This document shows, piece by piece, positions 12,693-31,022 of a DNA stretch of 64,000 nucleotides. The stretch lies in NCBI GenBank assembly GCA_964654975.1, contig CAZZKW010000002.1, positions 34,686 to 98,685 on the forward strand, written 5' to 3'. The stretch's first letter is position 1. Each line of letters begins with the position of its first letter. Origin of the DNA: an uncultured Woeseiaceae bacterium. GTDB lineage: Bacteria > Pseudomonadota > Gammaproteobacteria > Steroidobacterales > Woeseiaceae. Below the pieces are notes generated by a model. It searched no databases. It saw only the letters and a list, made by a program, of their open reading frames with translations, and was not told the origin of the DNA. Position numbers and translations under genes: made by a program.

Positions 12693-12943
12693 GGTTACTC
12701 CCAAGCATTGCGATTCGTGTTCTGCCAGCGAGTATAAGGAGTAGCAAACGCCAATCAAGGACCTGAGTCCCTGTTTCCTGCATTAGCTGTGATTGCGGAT
12801 TTTGCCGCGCAACAAAAGACGACGACCCGGATACCGGGGGAGGTAGAAGGAAACGCTGTGGCGATCGACGCTTTCAAGCGCACAACTGCTGACCGCAAAA
12901 CCGTCTACACTGTTGCATCGAGCGTATTCCGGGGAATTAAACG

Positions 12944-15315: not shown

Positions 15316-15379
15316 GCCGTCCAAAGTGTTAACCAGGCTACGGTTGGACCTCATATCCACGACAGGCGAGAGGGGCAGT

Positions 15380-16633
15380 ATGAATACTCAGCGACACGAT
15401 ACCCGGTTTAGCGGGGGTGTGGTTTTGGCCGTGGCGTTTGCGCTCACAATCCCCGGACTGGCGACGTCGGACGAAGACTCCAAAACCACCGCAGCCAAAG
15501 CGCCGACGCATATGTCGGAGGCGTTGCGAGCGACGGTTCGCAAGGTCGTCGTTTTGCCGACCACCAGTCCAGTCAGCGGTGTTGTAACCGGCAGCTACGA
15601 CAAAGATACGCTTGGACTACTGGACGGCGCGATGTCCGGTTCACGAGTCGGTCGGGGCGTCTCCAGAGAAATCGGACCCGTTGTCGTCCGGTTTCCGATT
15701 CCGATTCTGACAATTCCCGGCGCGATATTCGGTGGCCTGACAGGAGGCGCGAAGCGTACAGTGCAGGATTTTCGTGACGCGCTTACCGACGATCTTGCGA
15801 ATTCGGCCAGCGAGCCGTTGTCCAACGATGCTCTTGCTTCGGACGTGTTCTGGAGTATTCGCGACGTACCCGGCCTGCAGCCGAAGGTATTAGCGCTAAC
15901 AACGCCTATCCCGGGTGATACAGAAGCAATCCTGTACGTGAGCCTGACCGACGTTGGCATCGATGTTGAAGACAACGTCGCCACCATCACGACAACTGCG
16001 CAAACGACGCTGCGACGAATGAGCGATGGCGCACACATTTACCAGAGTACCGTCCATTATCAGGACGCGGATACCCTGTCGAACTGGACCAAAAACGACA
16101 ACACGGCGTGGCGGGATTACACCAATTTTGCGCGACACTACATCAGCCGCGAAATTTCGGCGGAAGTGTTCGACAGAGTCGTGCTGAATCACGAGCTTCG
16201 TCCGGCAGAAAGCGACACGATCAAGCGAGTCAAAAAAGACGACTGGCGTGGTATTAGCAAGTCGTCGACACCGACGTTGGCATGGGAGTATTCAGCGTTG
16301 GATGGCAACGTATACGGTGTGTGGAGTAACAATATCGATCCTGCGGAGGTTTCATTCGACGTCGAAATATACGATTTGCACGAACTCGTTTACGGCGCGA
16401 AAAAAATTACCGGCCGCGATCATACGGTTGAGGTGGAACTCGAAAAGTGCAAGACCTATCGCTGGACAGTGCGACCGAATTACAAAGTCGGTAGCGACGT
16501 AAAATTCGGTGAGTGGATGAGATTGGAATCGGCAGCCGACAGCGGACGCGGAGGTGTTGGCACCCAGGCGTCAGTGGCGGCAGCGTACATTCAGGACTTT
16601 GCTTCGCTGGAGATCAAGTGTGGTCGTCGCTAG
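15380..16633 (+). CDS. Hypothetical secreted/envelope protein
   Basis: ORF 15326..16633. I prefer the ATG at 15380, preceded by GAGAGGGG. Signal-like VVLAVAFALTIPGLATS, no family motif recognised. The C-terminal ~110 aa look like a beta-sandwich (TPTLAWEY..YRWTVRP). Confidence 0.6.
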   Translation: MNTQRHDTRFSGGVVLAVAFALTIPGLATSDEDSKTTAAKAPTHMSEALRATVRKVVVLPTTSPVSGVVTGSYDKDTLGLLDGAMSGSRVGRGVSREIGPVVVRFPIPILTIPGAIFGGLTGGAKRTVQDFRDALTDDLANSASEPLSNDALASDVFWSIRDVPGLQPKVLALTTPIPGDTEAILYVSLTDVGIDVEDNVATITTTAQTTLRRMSDGAHIYQSTVHYQDADTLSNWTKNDNTAWRDYTNFARHYISREISAEVFDRVVLNHELRPAESDTIKRVKKDDWRGISKSSTPTLAWEYSALDGNVYGVWSNNIDPAEVSFDVEIYDLHELVYGAKKITGRDHTVEVELEKCKTYRWTVRPNYKVGSDVKFGEWMRLESAADSGRGGVGTQASVAAAYIQDFASLEIKCGRR

Positions 16634-16665
16634 CGCGCGTTTTCCAGGTTTGTCGAATAATGGTG

Positions 16666-19041
16666 CTACTGTGAGCCGTCGCGAAACGTGAAGTGCCGCT
16701 TCGGGCGCGCCTTGAGTTGCCACTCCAGTTGCTGCTCACTGGCTTTTTTCAGGGTGGAATACGCTTGCGCCTGACCCGCCGCGTATTGTTTTTCCCAGTC
16801 TTTATTCTCAAGTTCGACGCCGTACCAGGCGGCGGCATGACGGGTCAGGAACGGATTCCAGAGGTGCGCGCGACCGATTGCGACCAGGTCGGCCCGCCGA
16901 GTATGCAGAATTGTATTTACCTGTGCCGCTTCAGTAATCGCGCCGACCGCCATCGTCGCCATTTTCGGTACATTGCGAATCGCCTCGGAAAAGCCCGTTT
17001 GAAACATGCGTCCGTAGACGGGCTCCTGGTCCGGAACTGTTTGACCGGCTGAAACATCAATCAGGTTGCAACCGGCATCGCGAAAGGCTTCCGCGATTGC
17101 GAACGTGTCCGCTTCGGTGATGCCTCCCGGTTTCCAGTCGCAGGCCGAAATGCGAACAGACATCGGTTTGTGAGACGGCCAGACCTTGCGAATGGCGACG
17201 AATACTTCGAGCGGAAAACGCATTCGATTCTGGATTGAGCCACCGAATTCATCGCTGCGCGTGTTGGTCAGCGGTGATAAAAAGCTCGCTAACAGGTAGC
17301 CGTGGGCGCAATGCAGCTCCAGCAGGTCGAATCCGGCGCGATCGGACCGAATCGCAGCGTGCACAAAATCATCACGTACTTTGTCCATGCCGGCACGATC
17401 GATTTCTGTCGGTAACTGGCTTTCGCCATCGAACCATGGAATAGCGGAGGCTGATTGCAGTGGCCAGTTCTTATCGGCCTCTGCGATGGGGTGATCCATT
17501 GCTTCCCAGCCCAGTTGCGTGGATCCTTTGCGGCCGGCGTGCCCGAGCTGTATGGCGATTCTTGTATTCGTATTGTCGTGTACGAAGTCAACGATGCGGC
17601 GCCACTGTTGCTCGTGCGCGTCCGTCCACAGGCCGGGGCAACCGACGGTGATACGAGCCTCCGGCGACGGGCAGGTCATCTCAACAAACATCAGGCCCAT
17701 GCCGCCGCGCGCCGCGCCGCAGTAGTGGGCGAAATGCCAGTCGGTCAGATTGCCATTCTCGTCGGCTGAATACTGTGCCATTGGCGACATGACAACACGA
17801 TTACGCAGCTCCAGAGCGCCGAGTTTGTATTTGGTGAACATCGGAGTCGGCCGCGTCTCGCGGTAGTCGTAACCGGTTTCCTCAAAATAGCGCTGATACC
17901 ATTCGGTGTCAGCATCTGCGACGAACTCCGGATCGCGCAACAACAGATTGTCGTAGGTGACGGACTTTGCGCGGCACATGATCACCATCGCGAACTGATA
18001 GGGGTCCATGTCCAGCGAACGTTCCATGTGTTCAAACCAGGCGAGCGACACATCCGCGTTGTGTTGTGTGATCTGCACCGGGACGCGGCGGTCATCGTCG
18101 TAGGCTTGCATGACTTTTTCGATGCCGTCGTTTTCGAGATGCGCTACAGCGGCTTCGAACAGACCGATCGCGCAATCCATCGCGAGCTTGGTGCCGGAAC
18201 CGATTGAGAAGTGTGCCGAGGCTTTTGCATCGCCGAGAATCGCGATCTTTCCAACGCTCCAGTTATTGCAAAAAATGCGCGGGAACTGGCGCCAGTTCGA
18301 GCGATTCAGAATCAGCGGGTGGTCGTCGAGTTCCTGTTTGAAAATTCCCTGCAGGATGGTTGCCGATCCTGCCTCATCGAATTCTTCAAAGCCATGACCC
18401 TGCCAGCATGCATCGGTCATTTCGAAGATCCACGTGGACATTTCCCGGGTGTATTGGTAAGTGTGCGCGCAGATGACGCCGTGATCGGTCTCTTTGAAGA
18501 AAAACGTAAAGTCTGTCAGCGGGCGCGTGGAGCCCATCCAGCAAAAACGGTTGCTCCTGGTTGTCAGCGAAACGTCGAAGCCCTGCTCACTTTGACGTGC
18601 TTCGCGAATCGCAGAGTTGATTCCGTCCGCAGCAAGAATGAGGTCGGAATCTGCGAATCGCTCCTCGATCGATTCCGCATCGATATGTGCTTCGAAGTGC
18701 AACTCGACGCCGAGTTCCTCGCAACGCTGGTGCAGGATACTCAGCAAGTGCACTCTTGAGGTGCCACAAAACCCGTTGCCACGGCATTTCAGGGTTTCGC
18801 CTTTGTAGTGAATGTCGATGTCATCCCAGTACGCGAATTCAGAGCGCATGCGCTCGTAGACGCGCCGGTCGCGGGATTCGTACTCGTCCAGCGAGCTGTC
18901 GGAGAAGACCACGCCGAAACCGAAAGTGTCGTCCGGGCGGTTTTGCTCAAAGACCTCGATAACCCAGTCCGGTCTGGCCTTCTTGGTCAGAATTGCGAAG
19001 AATAAGCCGCCAGGTCCGCCGCCAACAATGGATATTTTCAT
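16666..19041 (-). CDS. Bifunctional aryl-CoA monooxygenase/reductase (FAD hydroxylase + OYE-like FMN reductase fusion; 2-aminobenzoyl-CoA monooxygenase/reductase or salicylyl-CoA 5-hydroxylase type)
   Basis: ORF 16666..19059 (TTG start). I prefer the ATG at 19041 (MKISIVGGGPGGLFF, a Rossmann start). The C-terminal half NRVVMSPMAQYSA..HCAHGYLLASFLSP..RADLVAIGR is Old Yellow Enzyme-like. 791 aa, about 88 kDa. Confidence 0.8.
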   Translation of the reverse strand: MKISIVGGGPGGLFFAILTKKARPDWVIEVFEQNRPDDTFGFGVVFSDSSLDEYESRDRRVYERMRSEFAYWDDIDIHYKGETLKCRGNGFCGTSRVHLLSILHQRCEELGVELHFEAHIDAESIEERFADSDLILAADGINSAIREARQSEQGFDVSLTTRSNRFCWMGSTRPLTDFTFFFKETDHGVICAHTYQYTREMSTWIFEMTDACWQGHGFEEFDEAGSATILQGIFKQELDDHPLILNRSNWRQFPRIFCNNWSVGKIAILGDAKASAHFSIGSGTKLAMDCAIGLFEAAVAHLENDGIEKVMQAYDDDRRVPVQITQHNADVSLAWFEHMERSLDMDPYQFAMVIMCRAKSVTYDNLLLRDPEFVADADTEWYQRYFEETGYDYRETRPTPMFTKYKLGALELRNRVVMSPMAQYSADENGNLTDWHFAHYCGAARGGMGLMFVEMTCPSPEARITVGCPGLWTDAHEQQWRRIVDFVHDNTNTRIAIQLGHAGRKGSTQLGWEAMDHPIAEADKNWPLQSASAIPWFDGESQLPTEIDRAGMDKVRDDFVHAAIRSDRAGFDLLELHCAHGYLLASFLSPLTNTRSDEFGGSIQNRMRFPLEVFVAIRKVWPSHKPMSVRISACDWKPGGITEADTFAIAEAFRDAGCNLIDVSAGQTVPDQEPVYGRMFQTGFSEAIRNVPKMATMAVGAITEAAQVNTILHTRRADLVAIGRAHLWNPFLTRHAAAWYGVELENKDWEKQYAAGQAQAYSTLKKASEQQLEWQLKARPKRHFTFRDGSQ

Positions 19042-19064
19042 CGTAAACCCTTGATTCAATAATG

Positions 19065-19120
19065 TTTTACTGGCAATCCATATTTATATTACACGTAAAG
19101 TATTTATATATAAAGTAAAA
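19065..19120. promoter_or_regulatory. AT-rich divergent promoter/operator region with repeats (candidate MarR operator)
   Basis: Read directly. Tandem 20-bp units tatttatattacacgtaaag (19081-19100) and tatttatatataaagtaaaa (19101-19120) are 15/20 identical. TAAAGTA occurs at 19096 and 19111. The inverted pair TTTTACT (19065-19071) / AGTAAAA (19114-19120) is also present. Confidence 0.5.
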
Positions 19121-19137
19121 TCGCTTATACTGTTCGC

Positions 19138-19611
19138 GTGCCATCCAAACCACTCATAATCGACAGTCGTGAGCAGCAGTGCGTCAGGTTGTGGCTGGAA
19201 CTGCTGCGCTGCGCGAAAACGCAGGAGACGAAGCTCGGTGCGCGGCTGCGGAAAAACTTCGGCCAAAGCCTTACCCGGTTTGATGCGTTGTCGCAGCTGT
19301 ATCGTGCGCCGGACACGACTCTGTTGGTCACCGAGCTTGCGACGCGTATGTTAGCGTCGAAAAGCAAGAACATTACGCGGCTGGTGGATCGCATGGAGGA
19401 GGACGGGTTGGTGAGCCGCCGACCGAATCCGGGTGACCGACGCAGCTTCGTCGTGAGTCTGACAAAAAAGGGGCGGTCGATCTTTGAGGAAATGGCAATC
19501 GAACACGGACACTGGGTTTGTAACGGGTTTCAGGGTCTCACTGCCGCTGAGCTGAGCACATTGCAGTCTTCGATGATTAAGCTGCGCGAGCATTTGGAAC
19601 AAGATGACTAA
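19138..19611 (+). CDS. MarR family transcriptional regulator
   Basis: 157 aa with a GTG start. The winged-helix segment is LTRFDALSQLYRAPD..TELATRMLASKSKNITRLVDRMEEDGLVSRRPNPGDRRSFVVSLTKKG. Confidence 0.85.
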   Translation: MPSKPLIIDSREQQCVRLWLELLRCAKTQETKLGARLRKNFGQSLTRFDALSQLYRAPDTTLLVTELATRMLASKSKNITRLVDRMEEDGLVSRRPNPGDRRSFVVSLTKKGRSIFEEMAIEHGHWVCNGFQGLTAAELSTLQSSMIKLREHLEQDD

Positions 19612-20356
19612 TCTTAGAGGCAGTCACGCATTGGTTACCGGCGGTGCAACCGGCATCGGTCTGGCAATAGCGAAAGCGCTTTGCGCCAGTGGTGTGCGAG
19701 TTACGGTTGCGAGTCGTAATATCCAGCGCATTGAAGAGGTGACAAAAGACCTCGATGCAGTGACGGGTATGGCACTGGACGTTACCGATTCCGGCAGTGT
19801 CAGGAGCGTGTTCGAGGCGGCTGGCCCGGTCGATATTCTCGTTAATAATTCGGGAATAGCGCTCGCCGCGCCATTCGACTCGACAACGCAGGAACAACTG
19901 GCGAACGTTATGGCCGTAAATCTGACGGGTGTTTTCCACTGTATGCAAGCAGCGTTGCCCGCAATGCGCGAACAGAACTACGGCCGCATCATCAACATCG
20001 CGAGCACCGCCGGTTTGCGTGGCTACGCGTACACATCGGCCTACTCGGCATCAAAGCACGGTGTGATAGGAATGACGCGGTCGTTGGCGCTCGAATTGGC
20101 ATCAACCGGAATCACGGCGAACAGTATCTGTCCGGGTTTCACGGATACGGAAATCGTCGCCGATGCGACCGCCAACATCAGCAAAGTTACCGGACGCACC
20201 CAGGACGAGGCGTTGGCGGAGTTGGTGAAGCACAATCCACAAAAACGACTTATTGCACCGGCTGAGGTGGCTGATACGGTGTTGTGGCTTTGCGGTGAAA
20301 ACAGCCACTCGATCAACGGACAAGCCATCGCCATCGCTGGCGGCGAGGTCATGTAA
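19604..20356 (+). CDS. SDR family oxidoreductase (3-hydroxyacyl-CoA dehydrogenase-like)
   Basis: 250 aa. Contains [12 protein letters not shown] and YSASK. The start overlaps the MarR stop by 8 nt. Confidence 0.8.
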
Positions 20357-20372
20357 TGAAGGAGTTGAGGTA

Positions 20373-21188
20373 ATGAGGATGGATCCGGAAAAGTTCTCGC
20401 CAAAGCATTTTCTTTGGGAGTTTTCAGACGGCGTGGCGACGGTGCGCTTGAATCGGCCGGAACGTAAGAATCCGTTGACGTTCGACTCCTACGCCGAACT
20501 GCGCGATACCTTTCGCGAGCTGGTGTACGTCAAAGCGGTTAAAGCCGTTGTATTGGCACCGAACGAAGGGAACTTCAGTTCCGGTGGAGACGTACACGAG
20601 ATCATCGCGCCGTTGGTTGATATGTCGATGGACGGTTTGATGGACTTTACACGTATGACCGGCGATTTGGTTAAGGCAATGCGCCATTGTCCGCAGCCGA
20701 TTATCGCTGCCGTAGACGGCATATCTGCAGGGGCCGGTGCGATCTTGCCGATGGCCTCGGACCTGCGTATCGGTACGCCGGACGCGAAAACCTACTTCCT
20801 GTTCAATCGTGTGGGACTTGCCGGCTGCGACATGGGTGCATGCGCGATCCTGCCGCGCATCATCGGTCAGGGCAGGGCGTCGGAGTTGCTGTTGACGGGG
20901 CGCGCCATGAGTGCCGACGAAGGGCTCGCCTGGGGTTATTTCAACAATGTGGTTGCTTCCGAGCATTTGTCGGAGGCCGCCGCGACCCTCGCAGCTCGGC
21001 TTGCCGCCGGTCCGACTTTTGCTAACGGTATCACCAAGAATCAGCTCAACATGGAATGGGACATGAGTCTCGACACGGCGATTGAGGCCGAAGCGCAGGC
21101 GCAGGCGATCTGCATGCAAACGGCGGACTTCAAGCGTGCCTACGACGCGTTCGTGGCAAAATCCAAACCCGTGTTCGAGGGAAACTAG
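20373..21188 (+). CDS. Enoyl-CoA hydratase/isomerase (crotonase) family
   Basis: ORF 20253..21188. I prefer the ATG at 20373, 8 nt after GGAG. Contains [19 protein letters not shown] and [11 protein letters not shown]. Confidence 0.85.
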
Positions 21189-21191
21189 ATC

Positions 21192-22373
21192 GTGGCCGAT
21201 GCAAGTTATCTGGAGTGGCCATTCTTCGAGGATCACCATCGGGAACTGGTGGCGAACCTTGACGTTTGGTGCGCCGAAAATCTGCTGGCCGTTGTCGATG
21301 CGGGTGATTTTCACCGCGACATAGATGCGAGTTGCCAACGCCTGTTGACAATGCTCGGCGAAGCCGGGTATTTGCGCTACTGCGTGCCGCGAGAATTTGG
21401 TGGCGTACACGAGGCGCTCGACGTTCGGTCGCTGTGTTTGATTCGAATGACACTCGCTTATCACTCCGGACTGGCGGACTTCGTTTTCGCCATGCAGGGA
21501 CTGGGTTCGGGGACGATATCACTGCTCGGTTCTGCTGCAACGAAAGCGAGCTACCTGCCCGGCGTTGCTGATGGCAGCCGTTGCGCGGCGTTCGCGTTGA
21601 CCGAGCCCGAGTCCGGTTCCGATGTTGCTGCGACACGAATGACAGCAGACCGAGAGGACGAAGAGTTCGTCATCAACGGCATCAAAACCTTCATATCAAA
21701 CGGTGGCATTGCACATCAGTACGTTGTTTTCGCGAGGACCGGAGAGGACAAGGGTGCGCGCGGTCTATCGGCGTTCGTTGTCGATGCCGATACGCCAGGA
21801 CTGGACGCCTCGGAACGTATTGCGGTCATCGCGCCGCATCCGCTGGCGACGGTTCGTTTCGAAAACTGCCGTATCCCGGCTGCCAATTTACTCGGTGTCG
21901 GTGGCGGCGGTTTCAAGGGCGCGATGGCAACACTCGATATCTTCCGCCCAACGGTGGGTGCCGCGGCGCTGGGATTTGCGCGTCGTGCGCTGGATGAGGC
22001 GACGGCGCGCTCGAACTCCCGCCAACTCTTTGGTGCGCCGCTGCACGACCTGCAACTGGTTCAGGCGACGCTGGGCGAGTGCGCACTGGACGTGGACGCC
22101 TCGGCTTTGCTCGTCTTTCGAGCCGCCTGGGCAAAAGACAATGGTCAGCCGCGGATAACGCGCGAAGCGGCAATGGCGAAACTGCATGCGACTGAATCGG
22201 CGCAGCAGGTTATCGACAAAGCGGTGCAGATATTCGGTGGCAGTGGCGTCGTTTCCGGCGTCAAGGTGGAGGAGCTGTACCGGGAAATACGCGCGTTGCG
22301 AATCTACGAAGGTGCGTCCGACGTACAAAAGATTGTTATCGCGCGCGCACACCTTGCAGCAGAGGCAACGTGA
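21192..22373 (+). CDS. Acyl-CoA dehydrogenase
   Basis: 393 aa with a GTG start 3 nt after the upstream stop. Contains [18 protein letters not shown] and [10 protein letters not shown]. Confidence 0.85.
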
Positions 22374-22374
22374 C

Positions 22375-22806
22375 ATGAGTAGAGTTTTCAAAACCGAGCG
22401 CCTGGTTCGGCACGGTCACACGGACCCGGCCGGGTTCATGTTTTACCCGCGGTACTACGAGATGATCGCCGGCGTGATCGAAGATTTCTTTCGCCTGGAG
22501 TTGAATCGGCCGTTTGGGGAAATGCATCTTAAGCAACGTGTTGGTCTGCCAACCGTGAACATCGAAACGAATTTCTACGCGCCGAGTTATTGTGACGATG
22601 TCCTTGAATTCTCGCTTGTGGTTGAAAAGATCGGCAGGGCATCGGTGACGCTCCAGATCACCGTGACCTGCGGTGACGAGCAGCGTCTGAGCAACCGACA
22701 AACAATTGCGAATGTCATGCTCGATGAGGTCCAGGCTGTTCCGTTCAGTGCCGATCTTCGCGAAGGTTTACTGGGTTTTCTGGTCCGTGAGGAGTCGTCC
22801 GTATGA
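22375..22806 (+). CDS. Hotdog-fold acyl-CoA thioesterase (4HBT/YbgC-like)
   Basis: ORF 22186..22806. I prefer the ATG at 22375, 1 nt after the ACAD stop. Contains VRHGHTDPAGFMFYPRYY with the catalytic Asp context. Confidence 0.7.
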   Translation: MSRVFKTERLVRHGHTDPAGFMFYPRYYEMIAGVIEDFFRLELNRPFGEMHLKQRVGLPTVNIETNFYAPSYCDDVLEFSLVVEKIGRASVTLQITVTCGDEQRLSNRQTIANVMLDEVQAVPFSADLREGLLGFLVREESSV

Positions 22807-23198
22807 ATATTCTCTTGCCCGACGGTTGGCCGATGCCGCATGGTTACTCAAACGGCGTTGCCACACACGCGGGCCGGCAGATATTTGTCGCCGGTATGAT
22901 TGGCTGGGACGAGCAGGGCGTGTTTCAGTCCGACGATCTTGTCGATCAGTTGCGGCAGGTATTGATGAACACAAAGGCCGTGATGGCCGCTGGCGGGGCG
23001 GAGCCGGAGCACATGGTGCGCATGACGTGGTACATCACGGACAAAAAAGACTATAGTTCACGGCTGAAAGAAATCGGTGCGGCGTATCGGGATATCATGG
23101 GCCGCAACTATCCGGCGATGGCATGTGTGCAGGTAGTGGCCTTGATGGAAGACCGGGCGAAGATCGAAATCGAAACAAGCTGTGTAGTGCCAACATGA
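22803..23198 (+). CDS. Rid (YjgF/YER057c/UK114) family protein lacking the RidA arginine
   Basis: 131 aa. The ATGA overlaps the thioesterase stop. The C-terminus YPAMACVQVVAL..KIEIE aligns with RidA FPARSCVEVARL..KIEIE, so the Arg is replaced by Met. Confidence 0.8.
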   Translation: MNILLPDGWPMPHGYSNGVATHAGRQIFVAGMIGWDEQGVFQSDDLVDQLRQVLMNTKAVMAAGGAEPEHMVRMTWYITDKKDYSSRLKEIGAAYRDIMGRNYPAMACVQVVALMEDRAKIEIETSCVVPT

Positions 23199-23213
23199 TG
23201 TCCGAGAGGGAAA

Positions 23214-23678
23214 ATGGCGACAACAATCAAGGCGGAAGATATCCCAACGCTGGTGGGCCAGGACCTTGCGCCTTCGCCCTGGTTGGAGATAACGCAGGAA
23301 CGCGTGAATCAGTTCGCAGCAGCGACCAACGACCACCAGTTTATTCACGTAGACCCCGATAAGGCGGCCAGGACGCCGTTTGGTGGTCCGATCGCGCACG
23401 GCTTCCTGTCGCTGTCGTTATTGTCCTATCTTAACGCTCAGAATGCGCTGGTCCCGGAAAATCTCAGCATGGGCATCAACTACGGATCGGACAAGGTTCG
23501 TTATCTGATGCCGGTTCGTGTCGGCAAGCGAATACGTTCCTTGCAAACCGTGCTGGAAGTGACGGAGAAAAAACCCGGCCACTGGTTATTGAAGACCAGG
23601 GTCACAGTCGAAATCGAGGGCGAAGAAACGCCGGCATTGATCGCCGAAATTTTGTCGATGTGGATTATCGGCGGCTGA
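23214..23678 (+). CDS. MaoC-like (R)-specific enoyl-CoA hydratase/dehydratase
   Basis: 154 aa. Contains FAAATNDHQFIHVDPDKAARTPFGGPIAHGFL, the MaoC hydratase motif. Confidence 0.85.
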   Translation: MATTIKAEDIPTLVGQDLAPSPWLEITQERVNQFAAATNDHQFIHVDPDKAARTPFGGPIAHGFLSLSLLSYLNAQNALVPENLSMGINYGSDKVRYLMPVRVGKRIRSLQTVLEVTEKKPGHWLLKTRVTVEIEGEETPALIAEILSMWIIGG

Positions 23679-23703
23679 CTCGGCATTTAGAACAGGGAAT
23701 TGT

Positions 23704-24612
23704 ATGAGCATTAGAATGGATGGCCAGGTAGCAATAGTCACCGGAGCGGGTCGGGGACTTGGGCGTTGTCACGCCCTGGCGCTTGCGGAGCGGGGCGCTA
23801 AAGTTGTCGTGAACGATCTGGGAGACGATAGCGGACACTCGCAGGATGCATCCGCGGTCGTGAAGGAGATTGAAGGCGGCGGCGGTTCGGCCGTTGCGCA
23901 CGGTGCCAACGTGGCCGACTTTGAACAGGTCGAGGACATGGTCCGTTTGGGTATGGAACGGTGGGGCCGGGTCGATATCCTCGTAAACAACGCCGGCATA
24001 TTGCGCGACAAGACCTTCCTGAAGATGTCGATGGACGAATTTCGCCTGGTGGTCGATGTGCACTTGATGGGTTCGGCGAACTGCAGCAAGGCTGTCTGGG
24101 AAATCATGCGTGAGCAGAGCTACGGGCGCATCGTTTTTACGACGTCCAGTTCCGGCCTCTACGGTAACTTCGGACAGGCAAACTACGGCGCAGCCAAGAT
24201 GGCGATGGTCGGTCTGATGAATACCCTGCACCTGGAGGGTGCGAAGTACGATATTCGGGTCAACTGCCTGGCGCCGACGGCCGGCACCGCGATGACCGAA
24301 GGATTGTTTCCCGAGCCGGTTTTCAAACTGATGGCGCCCGAGGCGGTCAGCCCGGGTATCGTTTTCCTGACCGGACCGGAAGCGCCGAGCCGCAAAGTAC
24401 TGAGTGCCGGCGGTGGCAGTTTTGCGGTATTCAAGGGTTTCGAGACGGAGGGGCTGAGTCTGGCGCCGGATGATGTGACGCCCGAAGGTATTGCCGCGGC
24501 GTGGCATGCCATCGATGACGAGGCGGGAATGCGTGAGTTGCAGAGTGGCTTCGAGCAACCGACCAAGTTTGCACAGCAAGCAGCGAAAAAACTTGGCTTG
24601 AAGCTGGACTAA
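23704..24612 (+). CDS. SDR oxidoreductase resembling the dehydrogenase domain of multifunctional enzyme type 2
   Basis: 302 aa. Contains TGAGRGLG, NNAGILRD and YGAAK, with a longer C-terminal tail as in MFE-2-type (3R)-hydroxyacyl-CoA dehydrogenases. Confidence 0.75.
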   Translation: MSIRMDGQVAIVTGAGRGLGRCHALALAERGAKVVVNDLGDDSGHSQDASAVVKEIEGGGGSAVAHGANVADFEQVEDMVRLGMERWGRVDILVNNAGILRDKTFLKMSMDEFRLVVDVHLMGSANCSKAVWEIMREQSYGRIVFTTSSSGLYGNFGQANYGAAKMAMVGLMNTLHLEGAKYDIRVNCLAPTAGTAMTEGLFPEPVFKLMAPEAVSPGIVFLTGPEAPSRKVLSAGGGSFAVFKGFETEGLSLAPDDVTPEGIAAAWHAIDDEAGMRELQSGFEQPTKFAQQAAKKLGLKLD

Positions 24613-24635
24613 ATTAACGGAACAGAGACATTAAA

Positions 24636-25817
24636 ATGAGAGAAGCAGTTATTGTATCGACAGCACGTACACCCATCGGCAAAGCTTATCGTGGGGCGTT
24701 TAACAATACCGAGGCACCGTCGCTGGGTGGGCATGCGGTCAGGCACGCGGTCGAACGCGCCGGGCTGGATCCGGCGGAAGTTGAGGACGTCGTCATGGGT
24801 TGCGCGCTGCCGCAGGGCACGCAGGGCGCCAATATCGCTCGTCAGGTGGCCCTGGCGGCCGGATTGCCGGTGACGACCGCCGGAATGACGGTTGATCGAC
24901 AGTGCTCATCCGGGATGATGGCGATCGCAGTTGCAGCCAAAACGGTTATTTCTGACGGCGTGGACATCTTGGTCGGCGGCGGGCTGGAGTCCGTCAGTCT
25001 GGTGCAGAACGAACACATGAACCTGTTTCGTGCGGGCGACCCGAAACTACTGGCGGTTCACGAGCATATTCACATGCCGATGATCGACACCGCGGAGGTC
25101 GTCGCTAAACGTTACGGAATTTCTCGCGATGCACAGGACGAATACGCACTGCAAAGCCAGCAGCGTACGGCGGCAGGGCAGGAAGCTGGCAAGTTTGATG
25201 ATGAAATTGTATCGATGTCCTCCAGCAAAGGCGTTATGGACCGGGAGACCAAGGAAATCAGTTTTGAGGATGTGACTCTGGAAAAAGACGAAGGTAATCG
25301 GCCGGGTACCAACCTCGAGGGTCTCGCATCGTTGAAACCGGTGCGCGACGGCGGTGCGATAACGGCGGGTAATGCGAGTCAACTGTCTGACGGCGCGTCG
25401 GCATGCGTCGTGATGGAGGCAAGTTTCGCCGAGAAACGAGGACTGCAACCGCTGGGAATTTATCGCGGTACGGCGGTGGCGGGTTGCGAGCCCGATGAGA
25501 TGGGTATCGGCCCGATTTTCGCAGTGCCGAAACTATTGCAACGCAATGGTCTGACGATGGACGATATCGGCTTATGGGAACTCAACGAAGCGTTCGCGGT
25601 GCAGGTTTTGTACTGTCGTGACAAACTCGGCATCCCCAACGACACGCTTAACGTTAATGGCGGCGCAATTTCTATCGGGCATCCCTACGGTATGTCGGGT
25701 GCACGAATGGTGGGCCACGCTTTGATTGAGGGCAAAAGACGCGGTGTGAAGTTTGTTGTTTGCACCATGTGCATTGGCGGTGGGCAAGGCGCCGCCTCGC
25801 TCTTTGAAGTCGCCTGA
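24636..25817 (+). CDS. Acetyl-CoA C-acyltransferase (thiolase)
   Basis: 393 aa. Contains [12 protein letters not shown] (Cys nucleophile), [20 protein letters not shown] and CIGGGQG. Confidence 0.9.
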
Positions 25818-26794
25818 TGCGGGCGCTGGTCTGCAGAGAATACGGTCCGCCGGAGTCGCTGCTGATCGAAGAACGAAGCGATCCGACGCCAGCCAGTGGC
25901 GAGGTACTGATCGACGTTGTCGCGGCCGGGATTAACTTTCCGGACGTACTCGCCATCGCCGGCACGTACCAGGTCAAGACGCCAACTCCGTTTGTGCCCG
26001 GCAACGAGGCCGCCGGGGTTGTGTCGGCTGTCGGCAATGGTGTCACTCAGTATTCGCCGGGCGATAAAGTCATCGTCAATTCGGCGGGCGGGGCGTTTGC
26101 CGAGAAATGTGTTGCGGACCAGAACGCGACGATGCGCTTGCCCGGCGGACTGGATTTCGAGCAGGGTGCGGGGTTTACCGTTACCTACGGCACCAGTTAC
26201 CACGCTTTGCGGCAAAGCGCCGAGCTGCAGTCGGGCGAAACCGCCCTGGTATTGGGCGCGGCGGGCGGTGTCGGAATTGCCGCGGTTGAGATAGCCAAAG
26301 CGATGGGCGCGAGGGTTATTGCGGCCGCGAGCAGCGACCGGAAACTCGCGTTTGCCAAGGAGGCGGGCGCCGATGAAACGATTAACTACACATCGCAGCC
26401 GCTGAAGGAAACCGTAAAGGAGTTGACGGACGGCAAGGGTGCGGACGTCGTCTACGATCCGGTGGGTGGTGAGTTGGCTGAGCAGGCATTCCGGGCGACC
26501 GCGTGGCATGGCCGTTATCTCGTTGTCGGTTTTGCCAGCGGCGACATCCCGAGTTTTCGCGCAAATATTGCATTGTTGAAAGAAGCAAGCATTGTCGGCG
26601 TTTGGTGGGGAACGTGGGCGGCCAAAAATCTGCAGCTGCAAATTCAGAACATGCAGGACCTGGCCGAGCTGATCGAGAGTGGAAAGATCAATCCTCGGGT
26701 CACTGAGTCGTACACACTGCAGGATTTCGTACAGGCATTCGCGGCAATTACAGAACGCCGAGCGCTTGGAAAAGTCATCTTGCGCTTGCAGTAG
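25817..26794 (+). CDS. NADPH:quinone oxidoreductase / zinc-type MDR family reductase
   Basis: 325 aa. The start overlaps the thiolase stop by 1 nt (TGATG). Contains GINFPD, PFVPGNEAAG and LGAAGGVG. Confidence 0.8.
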   Translation: MRALVCREYGPPESLLIEERSDPTPASGEVLIDVVAAGINFPDVLAIAGTYQVKTPTPFVPGNEAAGVVSAVGNGVTQYSPGDKVIVNSAGGAFAEKCVADQNATMRLPGGLDFEQGAGFTVTYGTSYHALRQSAELQSGETALVLGAAGGVGIAAVEIAKAMGARVIAAASSDRKLAFAKEAGADETINYTSQPLKETVKELTDGKGADVVYDPVGGELAEQAFRATAWHGRYLVVGFASGDIPSFRANIALLKEASIVGVWWGTWAAKNLQLQIQNMQDLAELIESGKINPRVTESYTLQDFVQAFAAITERRALGKVILRLQ

Positions 26795-26840
26795 GCGCTT
26801 GGGCGTGAGCATAAGCGACACGGAAAATTGTAGTAGAAAT

Positions 26841-26889
26841 AGTTAATTGCAATTTGCAAGTTAATGGGTTAGTTTGCAGTCCCTTGCAA
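26841..26889. promoter_or_regulatory. Cluster of palindromic TTGCAA hexamers upstream of the GST gene
   Basis: Read directly. TTGCAA occurs at 26847-26852, 26854-26859 and 26884-26889, and TTGCAG at 26874-26879. AGTTAAT flanks the first pair (26841 and 26860). Confidence 0.35.
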
Positions 26890-26911
26890 AACAAAAGTAA
26901 ATGGAGTGCCC

Positions 26912-27535
26912 ATGTTTCGTCTGTACGGATTCCCCACGCAAAATTCTTTGAAGCCGCTGTACGTATTGGCAGCAATTGACTGCGAATACGAGTTCGAGTT
27001 TGTGGACTTGTCCAAGGGCGAGCATAAGCGCGAGTCGTTCGCTGAGAAGACACCTATCGGAAAAGTGCCGGTGCTCGAACATGACGGTGAGCATCTTTTC
27101 GAGTCTGGTGCGATTTGTCGTTACGTGGCGAGTGTCACAGAATCGCCGTTGTATCCCGCCGATACGCTGCAACGCGCGCGCGTCGATCAATGGATGGATT
27201 TTTTCAGTTGCCACCTTGGGCGCTATCTTTCGACGATATTCTTCGAGAAGGTTATCAAGAGGAAGTTCAATATCGGTGAGCCGAACCAGGAAAATATCGA
27301 GGAAGCGACCCGATTCATCACCGAGCAATTCGCGATCTTGAACAATCACCTGGAAAGCTCCGATTGGCTGGCAAACGACGCATTGTCCATCGCCGACTTG
27401 TTCGCATTTGCGTACGTCGAACAGCATCGTGCAATCGACTTTTCGTTGCAGGACTTTTCAAATGTGCAAGCATGGTTCGAGCGGGTAGAAGCGCTTGAGA
27501 GCATTGCAAACGCGAAGTCGAGATTGCCTGCATAA
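26912..27535 (+). CDS. Glutathione S-transferase
   Basis: ORF 26906..27535. I prefer the ATG at 26912 after GGAG. It has the thioredoxin-like N-domain IGKVPVLEHDGEHLFESGAICRY and a helical C-domain. Confidence 0.8.
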   Translation: MFRLYGFPTQNSLKPLYVLAAIDCEYEFEFVDLSKGEHKRESFAEKTPIGKVPVLEHDGEHLFESGAICRYVASVTESPLYPADTLQRARVDQWMDFFSCHLGRYLSTIFFEKVIKRKFNIGEPNQENIEEATRFITEQFAILNNHLESSDWLANDALSIADLFAFAYVEQHRAIDFSLQDFSNVQAWFERVEALESIANAKSRLPA

Positions 27536-27546
27536 GAAATGTTGTC

Positions 27547-27574
27547 AATGCGGCGTCAGTCACCGCATTTTCTT
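27547..27574 (+). terminator. Rho-independent terminator candidate after the GST gene
   Basis: AATGCGG (27547-27553) pairs with CCGCATT (27563-27569) across a 9-nt loop, followed by TTCTT. Confidence 0.5.
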
Positions 27575-27634
27575 GTCGCGACCGAGGACTGGTAGCAGGT
27601 AATATCGGGGATTATCTGAGAACGGAATACCTGG

Positions 27635-28939
27635 ATGACGACCGCGAAAGACGGGATCGTAGCAAGAGCTCTACGAATATTTTCTGAAATTGAGCCGAAT
27701 GAGCTGAAGGCGACCTTGGTATCGACGTTTTTTGTGTTTGTACTGATGGCTTCGTACTACATTCTTCGCCCGATACGCGATGCGATGGCCAGTGACTGGA
27801 CCGACTCGGAAGTCAGTTTTCTCTGGAATATAAATTTCGTTGTCAGCGCCGCAATCGTTGCTGTGTACGGCTTTGCAGTATCACGAGTTCGGTTGCGTAA
27901 CGTTGTTCCGACGATGTACGGTTTTTTTGCCGTTACGTTTGTCGCGTTCTACTTTGGTATCTCTCTTGTCGACGATCGAGTACTCGTCGACAAGTTGTTT
28001 TACCTCTGGGTAAGTGTATTTGCACTTTTTCACGTGTCGGTCTTTTGGGCGTTCATGGCTGACACATTCAGGCCCGGGCAGGCGACGCGCCTGTTTGCGA
28101 TCATCGGTACCGGGGCGAGTGCGGGAGCGATCGTTGGTCCGGCAATTCCGGCGTTGTTCGCCGGAGTACTTGGCATCGATACTCTGATGTTGGTTGCCTC
28201 GAGCAGTTTGTTGGTCGTAATTCCACTGGTTTTCTACATCTACCACCTGAAGGCCGTCGAGCTCGGTAATCGTGGCTTCGAGGACGCCCGCAAGGACAAA
28301 ATCATCGGCGGGTACTGGTGGCAGGGGTTTCGATCCTTTGTGAGCAACCCCTATCTGTTGGGCATCGGTGCGTTCATATTGCTCTACGTTTTCATCGGAT
28401 CGTTCGTCTACTTTGAGCAGAAGAACCTCCTGGCCGATTTTTCAAGAGCAGAACGAACCCAGATTCTTGGCAGTATTGACTGGCTGGTAAATGTCCTGAC
28501 CTTCGGCATGGCGTTCTTCGTTACCGGGCGAATCGTGGGCAAACTTGGCATGCCGGTGGCGCTTGCCTTGATGCCGGTGCTGGTCTGTGCCGGTCTTCTT
28601 ATTCTTGCGTTCGCCCCGCTACTGACCGTCCTGCTGGCGCTGCAGGTTTTCCGCCGCGGGGGCAACTACGGACTGACCCGTCCGGCCCGGGAGATGCTGT
28701 TTACAAAAATTTCTCAGGAAGACCGATTCAAGGCGAAACCCGTGGTCGATATCGTCGTCTATCGAGGCGGCGATGCGGTCAGCGGATCACTATTCGCCTT
28801 CCTGACCGACGGGGTCGGTCTTGGTCTTGCGGCGGTGGCTGCTGTAGGATCAGCTATCGCAGCCGCCTGGGCAGGCGTTGGGATATGGCTCGGCAGGAAA
28901 TTCGATAACACGAAGAATACGAGGATTGAAGATGAGTAA
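27635..28939 (+). CDS. TLC/NTT-like (ATP:ADP antiporter family-like) polytopic transporter, substrate unknown
   Basis: 434 aa with about 11-12 hydrophobic helices. ELKATLVSTFFVFVLMASYYILRPIRDAM and FYLWVSVFALFHVSVFWAFMADTF..ATRLFAIIGTGASAGAIVG mirror the conserved helix 1 and helix 4-5 patterns of TLC nucleotide transporters. Confidence 0.55.
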   Translation: MTTAKDGIVARALRIFSEIEPNELKATLVSTFFVFVLMASYYILRPIRDAMASDWTDSEVSFLWNINFVVSAAIVAVYGFAVSRVRLRNVVPTMYGFFAVTFVAFYFGISLVDDRVLVDKLFYLWVSVFALFHVSVFWAFMADTFRPGQATRLFAIIGTGASAGAIVGPAIPALFAGVLGIDTLMLVASSSLLVVIPLVFYIYHLKAVELGNRGFEDARKDKIIGGYWWQGFRSFVSNPYLLGIGAFILLYVFIGSFVYFEQKNLLADFSRAERTQILGSIDWLVNVLTFGMAFFVTGRIVGKLGMPVALALMPVLVCAGLLILAFAPLLTVLLALQVFRRGGNYGLTRPAREMLFTKISQEDRFKAKPVVDIVVYRGGDAVSGSLFAFLTDGVGLGLAAVAAVGSAIAAAWAGVGIWLGRKFDNTKNTRIEDE

Positions 28940-30560
28940 GCTGTGGTTTGATCAGTACGATCCGTGGGTGCCACAGGAAATCGATCCGGATCAGTACAGC
29001 AGCGTTGTCGAAATGTTGTCGGAAGCGGGTGAGCGGTACAGCGACAAAGTCGCGTTCAGTAGTTTTGGGGCGACAAAGACCTACGCTGATGTGATGTCGT
29101 TATCGCGTGACTTCGCTGCGTACCTGCAAAACGAGTTGGGTGTCGTAAAAGGGGATCGTGTCGCCCTCATGTGCCCGAACATGATGGCATTTCCGATAGC
29201 AATGCTGGGCATACTTCGCGCGGGTGCCGTGCAGGTTAATGTTAATCCCATGTACACGGCCCGCGAACTCGAACATCAACTGAATGATTCTGAGGTCGAA
29301 ACGATTGTGGCGTTTTCGGGTTCTACCGCCACGCTGGCAGAAGTCGTCACCAACACCGGTATCAAGAACGTGATCGTCGCGGTGCTCGACGACTTTCTCG
29401 ACATCGAATTGCCGTCGCCGCCGACGGACGAAACTCTGAAAAACCCGATGACGTTCCTGGCTGCGACATCGGCTGGCAAAGAGATGCAATTTTCAGACGT
29501 CGAACTGAGCGGGGACGACCTGATTTTTTTGCAGTACACGGGCGGGACCACGGGTCTGTCGAAGGGCGCCATGCTGACGCATCGCAACCTGGTTGCGAAT
29601 ATTCTTCAGTTTGAGAGTTTCGCGGGCGACTATATTCGTTGTGGAGAGGATGTCGTTGTTACGGTGATTCCGATGTACCACATCTTCGCACTGATGGTGA
29701 ACACGTTGTCGTATTTCAAATTTGGGGCGACTAATGTCCTGATCGCGAATCCTCGCGACATGCCGGCATTCGTCGCCGAGTGGTCGAAATGGAAGGTCTC
29801 CGTTTTCACCGGTGTCAATACCCTTTACAACGGCTTGCTGCACACACCCGGTTTTGCGGATCTGGATTTCTCGAACCTGGGTTTCAGCATGGGCGGCGGT
29901 GCGCCAGTGCAAAAAGCCGTATCGGACAAATGGAAGGCAGTCACCGGCAAACACATCAAAGAGGGTTACGGGCTGTCCGAAACGTCGCCGATATTGACGG
30001 TTAATCCCTTCGGTATGGAGGAGTTCAAGAGCAGTATCGGCATTCCCTTGCCGTCGACGGACATTTCCCTGCGTGACGACGATGGCAATGAGGTTGCTCA
30101 GGGTGAGCGCGGCGAGTTATGCGCGCGGGGTCCACAGGTGATGAAAGGCTACTGGCGCCGCGAAGACGCGACCGCCGAAAGTATGACCGCCGACGGATAT
30201 TTCTGCACCGGCGATATTGCCGTGATGGACGAATCCGGATTTTTCCGAATTGTTGATCGTAAGAAAGACATGATTCTCGTCTCAGGATTCAACGTCTTCC
30301 CGAACGAGGTTGAGGCGGAAGTTGCGGCGATGGACGGCGTGCTGGAGTGTGCGTGTATCGGCGTGCCGAATGAGAAAACCGGCGAATCGGTCAAGATCTT
30401 TATCGTAAAGTCGGACGAATCGCTGACCCGCGAATCGGTACGGGAGTATTGCAAGGAGCGCCTGACGGGCTACAAAGTGCCTGTGCACATCGTTTTTATC
30501 GATGAACTGCCGAAATCAACCGTTGGCAAAATACTGCGGCGCGAACTCAGGGACCACTAG
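28932..30560 (+). CDS. fadD: Long-chain-fatty-acid--CoA ligase
   Basis: ORF 28878..30560. I prefer the ATG at 28932 (MSKLWFDQYDPWVPQEIDPDQY, matching E. coli FadD [22 protein letters not shown]). Contains NVNPMYTARELEHQLNDS and YTGGTTG. It overlaps the transporter stop by 8 nt. Confidence 0.9.
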   Translation: MSKLWFDQYDPWVPQEIDPDQYSSVVEMLSEAGERYSDKVAFSSFGATKTYADVMSLSRDFAAYLQNELGVVKGDRVALMCPNMMAFPIAMLGILRAGAVQVNVNPMYTARELEHQLNDSEVETIVAFSGSTATLAEVVTNTGIKNVIVAVLDDFLDIELPSPPTDETLKNPMTFLAATSAGKEMQFSDVELSGDDLIFLQYTGGTTGLSKGAMLTHRNLVANILQFESFAGDYIRCGEDVVVTVIPMYHIFALMVNTLSYFKFGATNVLIANPRDMPAFVAEWSKWKVSVFTGVNTLYNGLLHTPGFADLDFSNLGFSMGGGAPVQKAVSDKWKAVTGKHIKEGYGLSETSPILTVNPFGMEEFKSSIGIPLPSTDISLRDDDGNEVAQGERGELCARGPQVMKGYWRREDATAESMTADGYFCTGDIAVMDESGFFRIVDRKKDMILVSGFNVFPNEVEAEVAAMDGVLECACIGVPNEKTGESVKIFIVKSDESLTRESVREYCKERLTGYKVPVHIVFIDELPKSTVGKILRRELRDH

Positions 30561-30569
30561 CAGCCGGGC

Positions 30570-30965
30570 TCAGGCAGTTGGCAACAGCACCTGTTCACCG
30601 CCGATTCCGATGAACTTCTTTACGGTGCTGGCGCATCGCAAGGTCATTGCTTCGAGGATGATGTTGTGAATCTTGCCGGGCGCCTCGCCCGCAAGCTCTT
30701 CTTCGACGTGCAACTCGAGGTGTGAGCCGTTGACGCGGAACAGCAAAGAATGACTGGGCTCGTAACCGGACCAGCCTTTGAATTTCCAGGGTTCGCTGAA
30801 GCTCACTTTGCGGCCGTCTTTCAGCAGTGCAAAACACTCGGCATTTCGCAGCGGAACCTCAACGGAGTACTCGCTGACGTCGGTATGGCTCGCGCCCCGT
30901 AGCGGAATCAGGTCATCAAGCAGCGAAACGGCGTCCGGTATTGCTAGCGGTTGCGGCTGTATCAT
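30570..30965 (-). CDS. Hypothetical protein (orphan)
   Basis: 131 aa with an ATG preceded by GGGGAG. No recognisable motif. G+C is similar to the core genes. Confidence 0.55.
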   Translation of the reverse strand: MIQPQPLAIPDAVSLLDDLIPLRGASHTDVSEYSVEVPLRNAECFALLKDGRKVSFSEPWKFKGWSGYEPSHSLLFRVNGSHLELHVEEELAGEAPGKIHNIILEAMTLRCASTVKKFIGIGGEQVLLPTA

Positions 30966-31022
30966 GTCGATCTCCCCATTGGCTTTTGTGACTTGCTACC
31001 AGTCTACGCCAGGGGGTCATCA

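Follow-up and report, generated by a model that had tools for sequence, protein, structure and literature searches.

In Azoarcus evansii, 2-aminobenzoyl-CoA is hydroxylated at C5 and then reduced to 2-amino-5-oxocyclohex-1-ene-1-carbonyl-CoA by a single bifunctional enzyme (PMC4539516). In Arthrobacter sp. Rue61a, the plasmid pAL1 encodes a verified anthranilate-CoA ligase adjacent to a fusion protein of the same kind, and anthranilate-grown cells contained anthraniloyl-CoA as well as the CoA ester of a C7H8O4 acid, tentatively cyclohexanedione-carboxyl-CoA (PMC3534580). The pathway after the 2-aminobenzoyl-CoA monooxygenase/reductase (ACMR) has been unresolved since 2001. It was left out of GapMind (2022) "due to a lack of knowledge," and the later steps are marked as hypothetical or speculative in a review from 2025. 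Our literature search for the downstream steps, or for work on this pathway in Ruegeria or Woeseia, found only reviews that call the steps hypothetical. The statement of an original prediction for the locus described below, that the steps after the dearomatised product are undescribed, therefore applies to the whole field.

Here, a locus of this type was analyzed in the window, a 64-kb stretch of DNA with a G+C content of ~55% from an uncultured Woeseiaceae bacterium of marine sediment (contig CAZZKW010000002.1). Similar to the A. evansii abm cluster (2001; PMC4539516, PMC8388817), the window encodes an ~87-kDa fusion of an FAD monooxygenase and an Old Yellow Enzyme (OYE)-type reductase. As the original prediction had stated, it also has in common with abm a regulator of the MarR family, a Rid (YjgF) protein and three enzymes of the beta-oxidation type, which are a short-chain dehydrogenase/reductase (SDR), a crotonase and an acyl-CoA dehydrogenase (ACAD). 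The sequence comparisons suggest that the apparent 10-gene pathway consists of two juxtaposed units of different origin. Unit A (16666-23198), which comprises the fusion, MarR, the first SDR (SDR1), crotonase, ACAD, a hotdog thioesterase and Rid, appears to be a canonical abm-type 2-aminobenzoyl-CoA core. Unit B (23214-30560) appears to be a resident and highly conserved block for fatty-acid-type beta-oxidation and uptake of the Woeseiaceae lineage. As a whole, the reading that an abm-type anthranilate core was inserted beside a resident beta-oxidation block is one that we regard as probable.

The fusion flavoprotein and the abm-type core

The fusion is encoded by a minus-strand open reading frame (ORF) at 16666-19059, of which the ATG at 19041 is the likely start, and it contains no internal stop codons. 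The resulting protein of 791 amino acid residues (aa) possesses a Pfam FAD_binding_3 domain at residues 9-326 and an Oxidored_FMN domain at residues 407-742, in agreement with the FAD hydroxylase/OYE-like fusion that had been predicted on this strand. Its N-terminus, MKISIVGGGPGG, is a dinucleotide-binding motif. Among solved structures, residues 1-361 matched the flavin hydroxylase VioD, and residues 400-758 matched OYE-family ene-reductases with up to 292 bits. The proposed likeness in architecture to ACMR and to SdgC, a salicylyl-CoA 5-hydroxylase, was borne out. The only specific NCBIfam model, NF006101, which is named "bifunctional salicylyl-CoA 5-hydroxylase/oxidoreductase," covered the fusion end to end (model positions 1-764 of 768). 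In this HMM check, which had been proposed earlier, the score was 975 bits, below the equivalog cut-off of 1078 bits.

At least 7999 homologues of the fusion were found at E <= 0.001, and many of the best were from marine bacteria. Among the matches listed, the top homologues were metagenomic sequences with identities of 76-95%, and the best named ones were from Kordiimonas, Spongiibacteraceae, Emcibacteraceae, Ruegeria and Labrenzia. The source names of the homologues were either "anthraniloyl-CoA monooxygenase" or that of the NF006101 model. The best genomic loci were from Woeseiaceae metagenome-assembled genomes (MAGs), with identities of 79-83%, and a JGI metagenome contig (L081) was 95% identical to the window and collinear with it. 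An actinobacterial origin with a Corynebacterium phd-like cluster, to which the G+C content and a Septum_form match had pointed, was rejected because the homologue and locus searches led to Woeseiaceae. In a neighbour-joining tree built from 87 fusions, each labelled by its gene context, the window fusion grouped with those of L088 and L081, and the sister of this group was L001, a locus from a Woeseiaceae MAG. All of these lie in a Woeseiaceae/Kordiimonas clade, the other members of which all carry an anthranilate-type ligase where enough flanking sequence is available. By this tree, the window fusion is orthologous to fusions that occur in anthranilate/tryptophan catabolic contexts.

That the fusion is instead an SdgC-like salicylyl-CoA 5-hydroxylase, which would form gentisyl-CoA from which the hotdog thioesterase would release gentisate, is very unlikely in our judgment. 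The name of the best NCBIfam model, the names that NCBI gives to relatives and the presence of a thioesterase in the cluster are consistent with such a reaction. However, the score is below the cut-off of that very model, the Rid deaminase is conserved and genes for the conversion of tryptophan to anthranilate are present in the sister loci, together with a ligase of the anthranilate type. Moreover, neither a gentisate dioxygenase nor a cupin was found among the annotated ORFs at 11.5-48 kb, over which no dedicated gentisate-dioxygenase profile was run, and NCBI proteins of the same name are in tryptophan contexts in Ruegeria and Rhodococcus.

Proteins named "salicylyl-CoA 5-hydroxylase" in L083, L095, L096 and L001 were encoded beside tryptophan 2,3-dioxygenase, RidA and anthranilate-type ligases. 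The NCBI name probably mislabels many anthraniloyl-CoA monooxygenase/reductases, and the locus in the window serves as a caution on its use.

The window proteins were mapped on 81 loci with a fusion homologue, in which homologues near the fusion were identified by tblastn. ACAD was a neighbor of the fusion in 56 of these loci, SDR1 in 55, crotonase in 49, MarR in 42, Rid in 37 and the thioesterase in 18. The thioesterase, which had been taken for an addition to the pathway, is thus found in related loci, including the eight-gene operon of Ralstonia. The core of the window is an unremarkable representative of a gene set that is widespread among bacteria and serves to degrade anthranilate, a product of tryptophan, as the CoA ester; abm-type clusters have been known since 2001.

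The crotonase scored 470.6 bits against NCBIfam NF006107, for which the cut-off is 330, and its best solved structures were 3g64 and then PaaG (4fzw_C), an isomerase that is its nearest relative of characterised function. One of its Asp residues aligned with the Asp of the PaaG GL(I/V)PD loop, which we take to be the catalytic Asp136 of PaaG. Judged by eye, the canonical hydratase Glu pair seems to be missing. The ACAD contained the three core domains (N, M and C-terminal _1) as well as a match to the alternative C-terminal model Acyl-CoA_dh_2. Its best partial NCBIfam matches were acryloyl-CoA reductase and cyclohexane-1-carbonyl-CoA dehydrogenase, all of them under the cut-offs.

All seven core genes were intact. 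Between the window and L081, both of which are ligase-less, the ratios of nonsynonymous to synonymous substitution (dN/dS) of the core genes ranged from 0.04 to 0.17 at dS of 0.2-0.5, with a dN/dS of 0.058 for the fusion. At these ratios, purifying selection still acts on the core genes. Because the reading frames are intact and dN/dS is low, pseudogenization of the core was rejected. These values also bear on the possibility that the core is a non-functional remnant of a pathway that stopped once a rearrangement had removed the ligase. In favor of a remnant, the window encodes neither the dedicated ligase nor the kynurenine enzymes, and in other loci this ligase and the cluster nearly always occur together. 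Yet low dN/dS at this level of dS implies that the constraint persisted after the rearrangement, and we consider a remnant to be the least probable of all the alternatives.

In the intergenic region between the divergent fusion and MarR genes, an AT-rich element of ~40 nt at 19081-19119, which on the strand of the fusion gene reads TTTACTTTATATATAAATACTTTAYRTGTAA, was kept in L081, L088, L001, L004 and L007, although the identity of the fusion drops to 79-83% in the last three. Two 19-nt direct repeats, at 19081-19099 and 19101-19119, flank the palindrome TTTATATATAAA. Two promoter-like hexamer pairs were also present in this region, with the count over the whole scan at chance level. The repeat element is a candidate MarR operator or promoter.

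The downstream block and the junction between the units

The nine gene families that had been assigned after MarR, with their gaps and overlaps, were recovered by Pfam and NCBIfam searches with corrected starts, including the 8-nt overlap of the MarR stop with the next start at 19604. When the junctions were measured after start codons had been adjusted by the gene calls of near-identical contigs, those from MarR to the quinone oxidoreductase (QOR) were -8, 16, 3, 1, -4, 15, 25, 23 and -1 nt. With no gap above 25 nt, the arrangement is compatible with co-transcription from MarR to QOR. The gene run does not end at 26794, as had been stated: genes on the same strand for a glutathione S-transferase (GST), a major facilitator superfamily (MFS) transporter and an acyl-CoA ligase follow and were overlooked earlier. 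The description of these genes as one unit holds for their physical packing; it does not hold for their origin, for which comparative genomics gives two units.

The genes from MaoC onward had a distribution of their own. Homologues of the second SDR (SDR2) were found in the hundreds, with identities of 78-100%. In L084, from the Woeseiaceae-related MAG GCA_021773095.1, GDPD, MFS and conserved hypothetical genes are followed by six unrelated genes and then by MaoC-SDR2-thiolase-GST; onward from GST are DUF7009, a nap operon and then the MFS and 542-aa ligase genes. In L091 (GCA_021773035.1), the hypothetical gene, XdhC and a nucleotidyltransferase precede SDR2-thiolase-QOR-GST, after which four small genes, including one for a LysR regulator, are followed by MFS and ligase. 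Neither of the two loci contains the fusion core. Besides the hypothetical gene, the window and L084 share GDPD and MFS genes to the left of the slot. The identities of the orthologs to the window proteins were 84% for MaoC (L084), 79-86% for SDR2, 85-89% for the thiolase, 76-77% for QOR and 64-68% for GST, as well as 70-79% for the MFS transporter and 84-85% for the ligase (the last two in L084 and L091). GST was in the same position in L081, L088, L084 and L091, and the QOR orthologs were directly after the thiolase in L086, L087, L091, L093 and L094. In more distant gammaproteobacteria, ACAD-SDR2-thiolase-QOR was beside a wax-ester synthase, further ACADs and ligases, and in L086, L087, L093 and L094 the block was beside lipid genes. 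No fusion core was found within 10 kb of the block in L084, L091, L086, L087, L093 or L094.

The junction was resolved by comparison with L084. At the DNA level, the window and L084 cease to be homologous where the hypothetical gene stops (16633), and they are homologous again from no more than 15 nt ahead of the MaoC ATG. The abm core, at ~16.64-23.21 kb, fills a variable slot directly upstream of the MaoC block. Because the block occupies this chromosomal site in relatives that have no fusion core, Unit B is read as resident. The MaoC/SDR pair and QOR, which the original prediction regarded as additions to the ring pathway, thus belong to a conserved resident block, and the claimed additions are largely an artefact of adjacency. 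Among the other 80 fusion loci, MaoC or SDR2 was found in none, a thiolase homologue only in L056 (39% identity) and a weak QOR-like match only in L039 (27%). In the neighborhood survey proposed earlier, therefore, the core recurred and MaoC and SDR2 did not.

The same comparisons bear on whether all ten, or thirteen, genes form one dedicated hybrid pathway, in which MaoC, SDR2, thiolase and QOR would perform later, ring-derived beta-oxidation and the MFS transporter and FadD/4-coumarate-CoA ligase (4CL)-like ligase would import and activate the aromatic acid in place of the canonical ligase. Several features are in keeping with this: only 15 nt separate Rid from MaoC, the native upstream region of MaoC is gone and the arrangement does not vary among three independent contigs (the window, L081 and L088), with purifying selection on all genes. 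In addition, canonical clusters encode no thiolase, so that one is needed from somewhere, and the 542-aa ligase has solved-structure matches of the 4-coumarate/feruloyl-CoA ligase kind. However, orthologs of Unit B with identities of 64-89% occupy the same site in relatives that have no fusion core within 10 kb, and distant gammaproteobacteria have them beside lipid-metabolism genes. MaoC and SDR2 are likewise absent from the other 80 fusion loci, with thiolase and QOR limited to the single matches given above. The ligase is nearest to the FadD and MatB types and reached only 133 bits against anthranilate-CoA ligase, and the gaps of 117 nt (QOR-GST) and 99 nt (GST-MFS) permit separate transcription. 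We regard a single dedicated pathway as unlikely and continue with the two-unit reading.

The thiolase scored 634.9 bits against NCBIfam NF005494, above the cut-off of 615. The pairing of SDR2 with MaoC suggests that SDR2 is an (R)-3-hydroxyacyl-CoA dehydrogenase. The region of 16.6-30.6 kb contains one gene on the minus strand and 13 on the plus strand (Table 1).

Table 1. Positions and family assignments of the genes of Units A and B and of the divergent spacer in the window.
Feature	Position	Strand	Assignment or description	Family match
Fusion flavoprotein, 791 aa	16666..19041	-	Predicted ACMR-like 2-aminobenzoyl-CoA monooxygenase/reductase	FAD aromatic hydroxylase (N-terminal) and OYE-type FMN reductase (C-terminal)
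Divergent AT-rich spacer, 96 nt	19042..19137		Candidate promoters and candidate MarR operator	
MarR-family regulator, 157 aa	19138..19611	+	GTG start; first gene of the operon	Pfam MarR, MarR_2
SDR1, 250 aa	19604..20356	+	Classical SDR, like 3-hydroxybutyrate dehydrogenase and FabG; core	
Crotonase-family protein, 271 aa	20373..21188	+	PaaG-like isomerase/hydrolase type; core	NCBIfam NF006107
ACAD, 393 aa	21192..22373	+	Acyl-CoA dehydrogenase; core	Pfam ACAD domains
Hotdog thioesterase, 143 aa	22375..22806	+	4HBT/YbgC-type acyl-CoA thioesterase; frequent core accessory	
Rid (YjgF/RidA), 131 aa	22803..23198	+	Predicted enamine/imine deaminase; last gene of the core	Pfam Ribonuc_L-PSP
MaoC, 154 aa	23214..23678	+	(R)-specific enoyl-CoA hydratase; first gene of the resident block	
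SDR2, 302 aa	23704..24612	+	PRK07791-like SDR; resident block	
Thiolase, 393 aa	24636..25817	+	Resident block	NCBIfam NF005494
QOR, 325 aa	25817..26794	+	QOR/MDR-family reductase; resident block	
GST, 207 aa	26912..27535	+	Resident	Pfam GST_N, GST_C
MFS transporter, 434 aa	27635..28939	+	Resident; translationally coupled to the ligase	Pfam MFS_1
Acyl-CoA ligase, 542 aa	28932..30560	+	FadD/4CL-like, AMP-dependent; resident	

The start of the 542-aa ligase gene overlaps the MFS stop by 8 nt. A scan for promoters and terminators over 15-32.5 kb returned counts equal to the shuffled expectation, and the hairpin and U-tract 3' of GST were weak, with a fold that was not significant (z = -1.1). The QOR-GST spacer (26795-26911) contains the imperfect palindrome TTAATTGCAATTTGCAAGTTAA, which could serve to bind a regulator or as a promoter of its own for GST. 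In four Roseomonas loci (L026, L028, L029 and L042), an MFS protein 34-37% identical to that of the window is encoded ~6-8 kb from the fusion; the identity is low and the distance large, and a link of the window MFS transporter to the pathway was therefore rejected.

On the left side, the conserved hypothetical gene at 15326-16633 (+) encodes a protein of 417-435 aa with no Pfam or NCBIfam match, and it bounds the variable slot on the left in the window as well as in L081, L084, L088 and L091. Between this gene and the fusion gene, L081 contains a 75-aa ORF and a 122-aa Fic-domain protein (12501-13093 of that contig), the counterpart of which in the window is a spacer of 32 nt (16634-16665). 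The slot between the hypothetical gene and the fusion is an insertion hotspot. On the right side, a 131-aa ORF at 30570-30965 (-) is weakly like the malate synthase G insertion domain (Pfam E = 1.8e-7), with NCBIfam scores far under the cut-offs, and it may be a gene remnant. The 1.8 kb around it (30561-32400) otherwise contains only short unannotated ORFs. Further downstream of the ligase, a FadE-like ACAD of 630 aa (32405-34297) fits a lipid-oxidation neighborhood.

Substrate and ligase

A ligase of 524-544 aa was found beside the fusion in 32 of the 81 loci. Its best solved-structure matches were anthranilate-CoA ligase 4wv3 and benzoate-CoA ligases, and in a reciprocal test the fusion was present in 29 of the 44 metagenome loci of at least 9 kb that were found with this ligase. 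Genes for tryptophan 2,3-dioxygenase and/or kynureninase were within 10 kb of the fusion in L001, L006, L009, L010, L018 and L067 (tblastn, identity of at least 43%). L006 carried both, and Pfam confirmed the two enzymes in L001 only. Among annotated genes, both were present in L095, a plasmid of Rhodococcus qingshengii, and tryptophan 2,3-dioxygenase in L083, the megaplasmid of Ruegeria pomeroyi DSS-3. Because the related loci usually have the anthranilate-type ligase and several of them tryptophan 2,3-dioxygenase and kynureninase, the substrate in the window is most probably 2-aminobenzoyl-CoA, derived from anthranilate. The conserved Rid fits the removal of the amino group. That the substrate is open, as the original prediction had it, is not supported in view of the ligase carried by the fusion clade and, in L001 and L006, also of tryptophan 2,3-dioxygenase and kynureninase.

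The earlier statement that the cluster has no ligase was correct for the canonical benzoate/anthranilate type, none of which is encoded in the 64-kb window, and it missed the FadD-like ligase downstream. The only matches to the anthranilate-type ligase in the window were a FadD-like and an ACS-like ligase, with identities of 26-30%. The 542-aa ligase scored 715 bits against the NCBIfam FadD model PRK08974, below its cut-off of 884. Its best solved structures were malonyl-CoA synthetase (MatB, 253 bits), feruloyl-CoA synthetase, 4-coumarate-CoA ligase and FadD (253-221 bits), and it matched the anthranilate-CoA ligase 4wv3 with 133 bits only. By these matches, it would be an enzyme of the FadD/MatB/4CL type, outside the benzoate/anthranilate-CoA ligase clade. 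By the phylogeny of the fusion, the absence of the anthranilate-type ligase from the cluster is a derived loss. Given that the core has been kept under constraint and that its cluster contains no such ligase, the activation of anthranilate is probably supplied from elsewhere in the genome.

Proposed course of the pathway and comparison with described systems

According to the two-unit reading, Unit A would have been inserted between the conserved hypothetical gene and MaoC, leaving behind the dedicated anthranilate-CoA ligase and, where linked, the kynurenine-pathway genes. From orthology and gene context, we infer for the fusion the reaction of the A. evansii enzyme. The FAD domain would hydroxylate 2-aminobenzoyl-CoA at C5, para to the amino group, and the OYE/FMN domain would use NAD(P)H to reduce the non-aromatic tautomer to 2-amino-5-oxocyclohex-1-ene-1-carbonyl-CoA, with O2 and 2 NAD(P)H used overall. 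Rid could then hydrolyse the enamine/imine, yielding 2,5-dioxocyclohexane-1-carbonyl-CoA and ammonium. The PaaG-like crotonase may act on the ring as an isomerase or cleave the beta-keto ring by hydrolysis, SDR1 and ACAD would perform beta-oxidation-like redox steps, and the hotdog thioesterase may release or proof-read a CoA ester. The divergent promoters are probably repressed by MarR through the conserved AT-rich element, with the aryl-CoA as the probable effector of MarR. Because only 15 nt separate Rid from MaoC and the native upstream region of MaoC has been replaced, Unit B is probably read through at least in part from the abm promoter, or else transcribed from a promoter inside Rid.

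Several points weigh against this reading. The window encodes no ortholog of the anthranilate-type ligase, no kynureninase and no tryptophan dioxygenase, and a metagenome scan with the L001 ligase yielded no contig from the sample of L081 and none attributable to the lineage of the window. The fusion falls short of the NF006101 cut-off, and we infer its function from a context-labelled tree in place of a direct comparison with AbmA or SdgC. The roles suggested here for Rid, crotonase, SDR1, ACAD and thioesterase are proposals drawn from their families. Finally, the tight packing of Rid and MaoC could reflect a functional recruitment of Unit B.

Such a recruitment might take one of two forms, in both of which the ligase-less core would be wired to the (R)-specific beta-oxidation block, the MFS transporter and the FadD/4CL-like ligase. 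In the first, the block would supply the thiolytic steps that are absent from every canonical cluster, and the locus, if this were true, would be the first in which the complete route is encoded. According to the second form, an ortho-aminophenyl-alkanoate would be imported, activated at its side chain and beta-oxidised to 2-aminobenzoyl-CoA, so that no aryl-CoA ligase would be needed. Either form, if true, would place a housekeeping module under the control of an aryl-CoA-responsive MarR. Taken together, the two forms seem to us decidedly improbable, and the two-unit reading is retained.

The fusion is very common and many of its best homologues are marine, so that the route may be important for the turnover of tryptophan and anthranilate in marine sediments and seawater. 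The locus adds evidence that Woeseiaceae carry the pathway, and it provides a clean natural example of a core separated from its ligase. For the later steps, cultured carriers of the full operon, such as Ruegeria pomeroyi DSS-3, Ralstonia solanacearum and Paracoccus denitrificans, are better models.

By architecture, gene content and orthology, the window belongs to the abm type, from which it departs in having no ligase within the cluster. Compared with the A. evansii abm cluster, it lacks both the 2-aminobenzoate-CoA ligase and the ABC binding protein and possesses a hotdog thioesterase. In addition, its fusion gene is divergent and not inside the operon, and its core abuts the resident beta-oxidation block. 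On the Ralstonia solanacearum megaplasmid (L096), the eight-gene operon consists of fusion, SDR, MarR, crotonase, ACAD, ligase, thioesterase and RidA. This operon and that of Ruegeria (L083) share with the window the fusion, SDR, MarR, crotonase, ACAD and RidA, to which Ralstonia adds the thioesterase, and their fusions are 44-46% identical to that of the window. Different from the window, both operons include an AMP-dependent aryl-CoA ligase and have the fusion as the first gene of the same operon; in Ruegeria, tryptophan 2,3-dioxygenase also adjoins the operon.

The fusion of L001 (JAJFKV010000012.1) is the closest in the tree outside the lineage of the window, to which L081 and L088 belong. 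L001 shares with the window the order of the core genes, the divergent layout and the AT-rich intergenic element, and its fusion is 83% identical to that of the window, compared with 59-80% for the remainder of the core. However, an anthranilate-type ligase, kynureninase, tryptophan 2,3-dioxygenase and a Crp-family regulator are encoded immediately beside the fusion in L001, and MaoC, SDR2, thiolase and QOR do not follow Rid. SdgC of Streptomyces sp. WA46, after which NF006101 is named, has the same two-domain architecture as the window fusion, and the window fusion matches that model end to end. The window fusion differs in scoring below the model cut-off and in being surrounded by Rid and beta-oxidation genes in place of gentisate-pathway genes.

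Similar to the window, pAL1 of Arthrobacter sp. Rue61a encodes a fusion, 46% identical to that of the window, with RidA and a thioesterase nearby. Different from the window, it has a cupin, a fumarylacetoacetate-hydrolase-family protein and PaaX regulators and lacks the SDR/crotonase/ACAD/MarR set. In both pAL1 (L082) and the Rhodococcus plasmid L095, a cupin, a fumarylacetoacetate-hydrolase-family protein, a thioesterase and PaaX replace SDR, crotonase, ACAD and MarR. The actinobacterial gene set points to another route after the shared first enzyme, perhaps via 5-hydroxyanthranilate.

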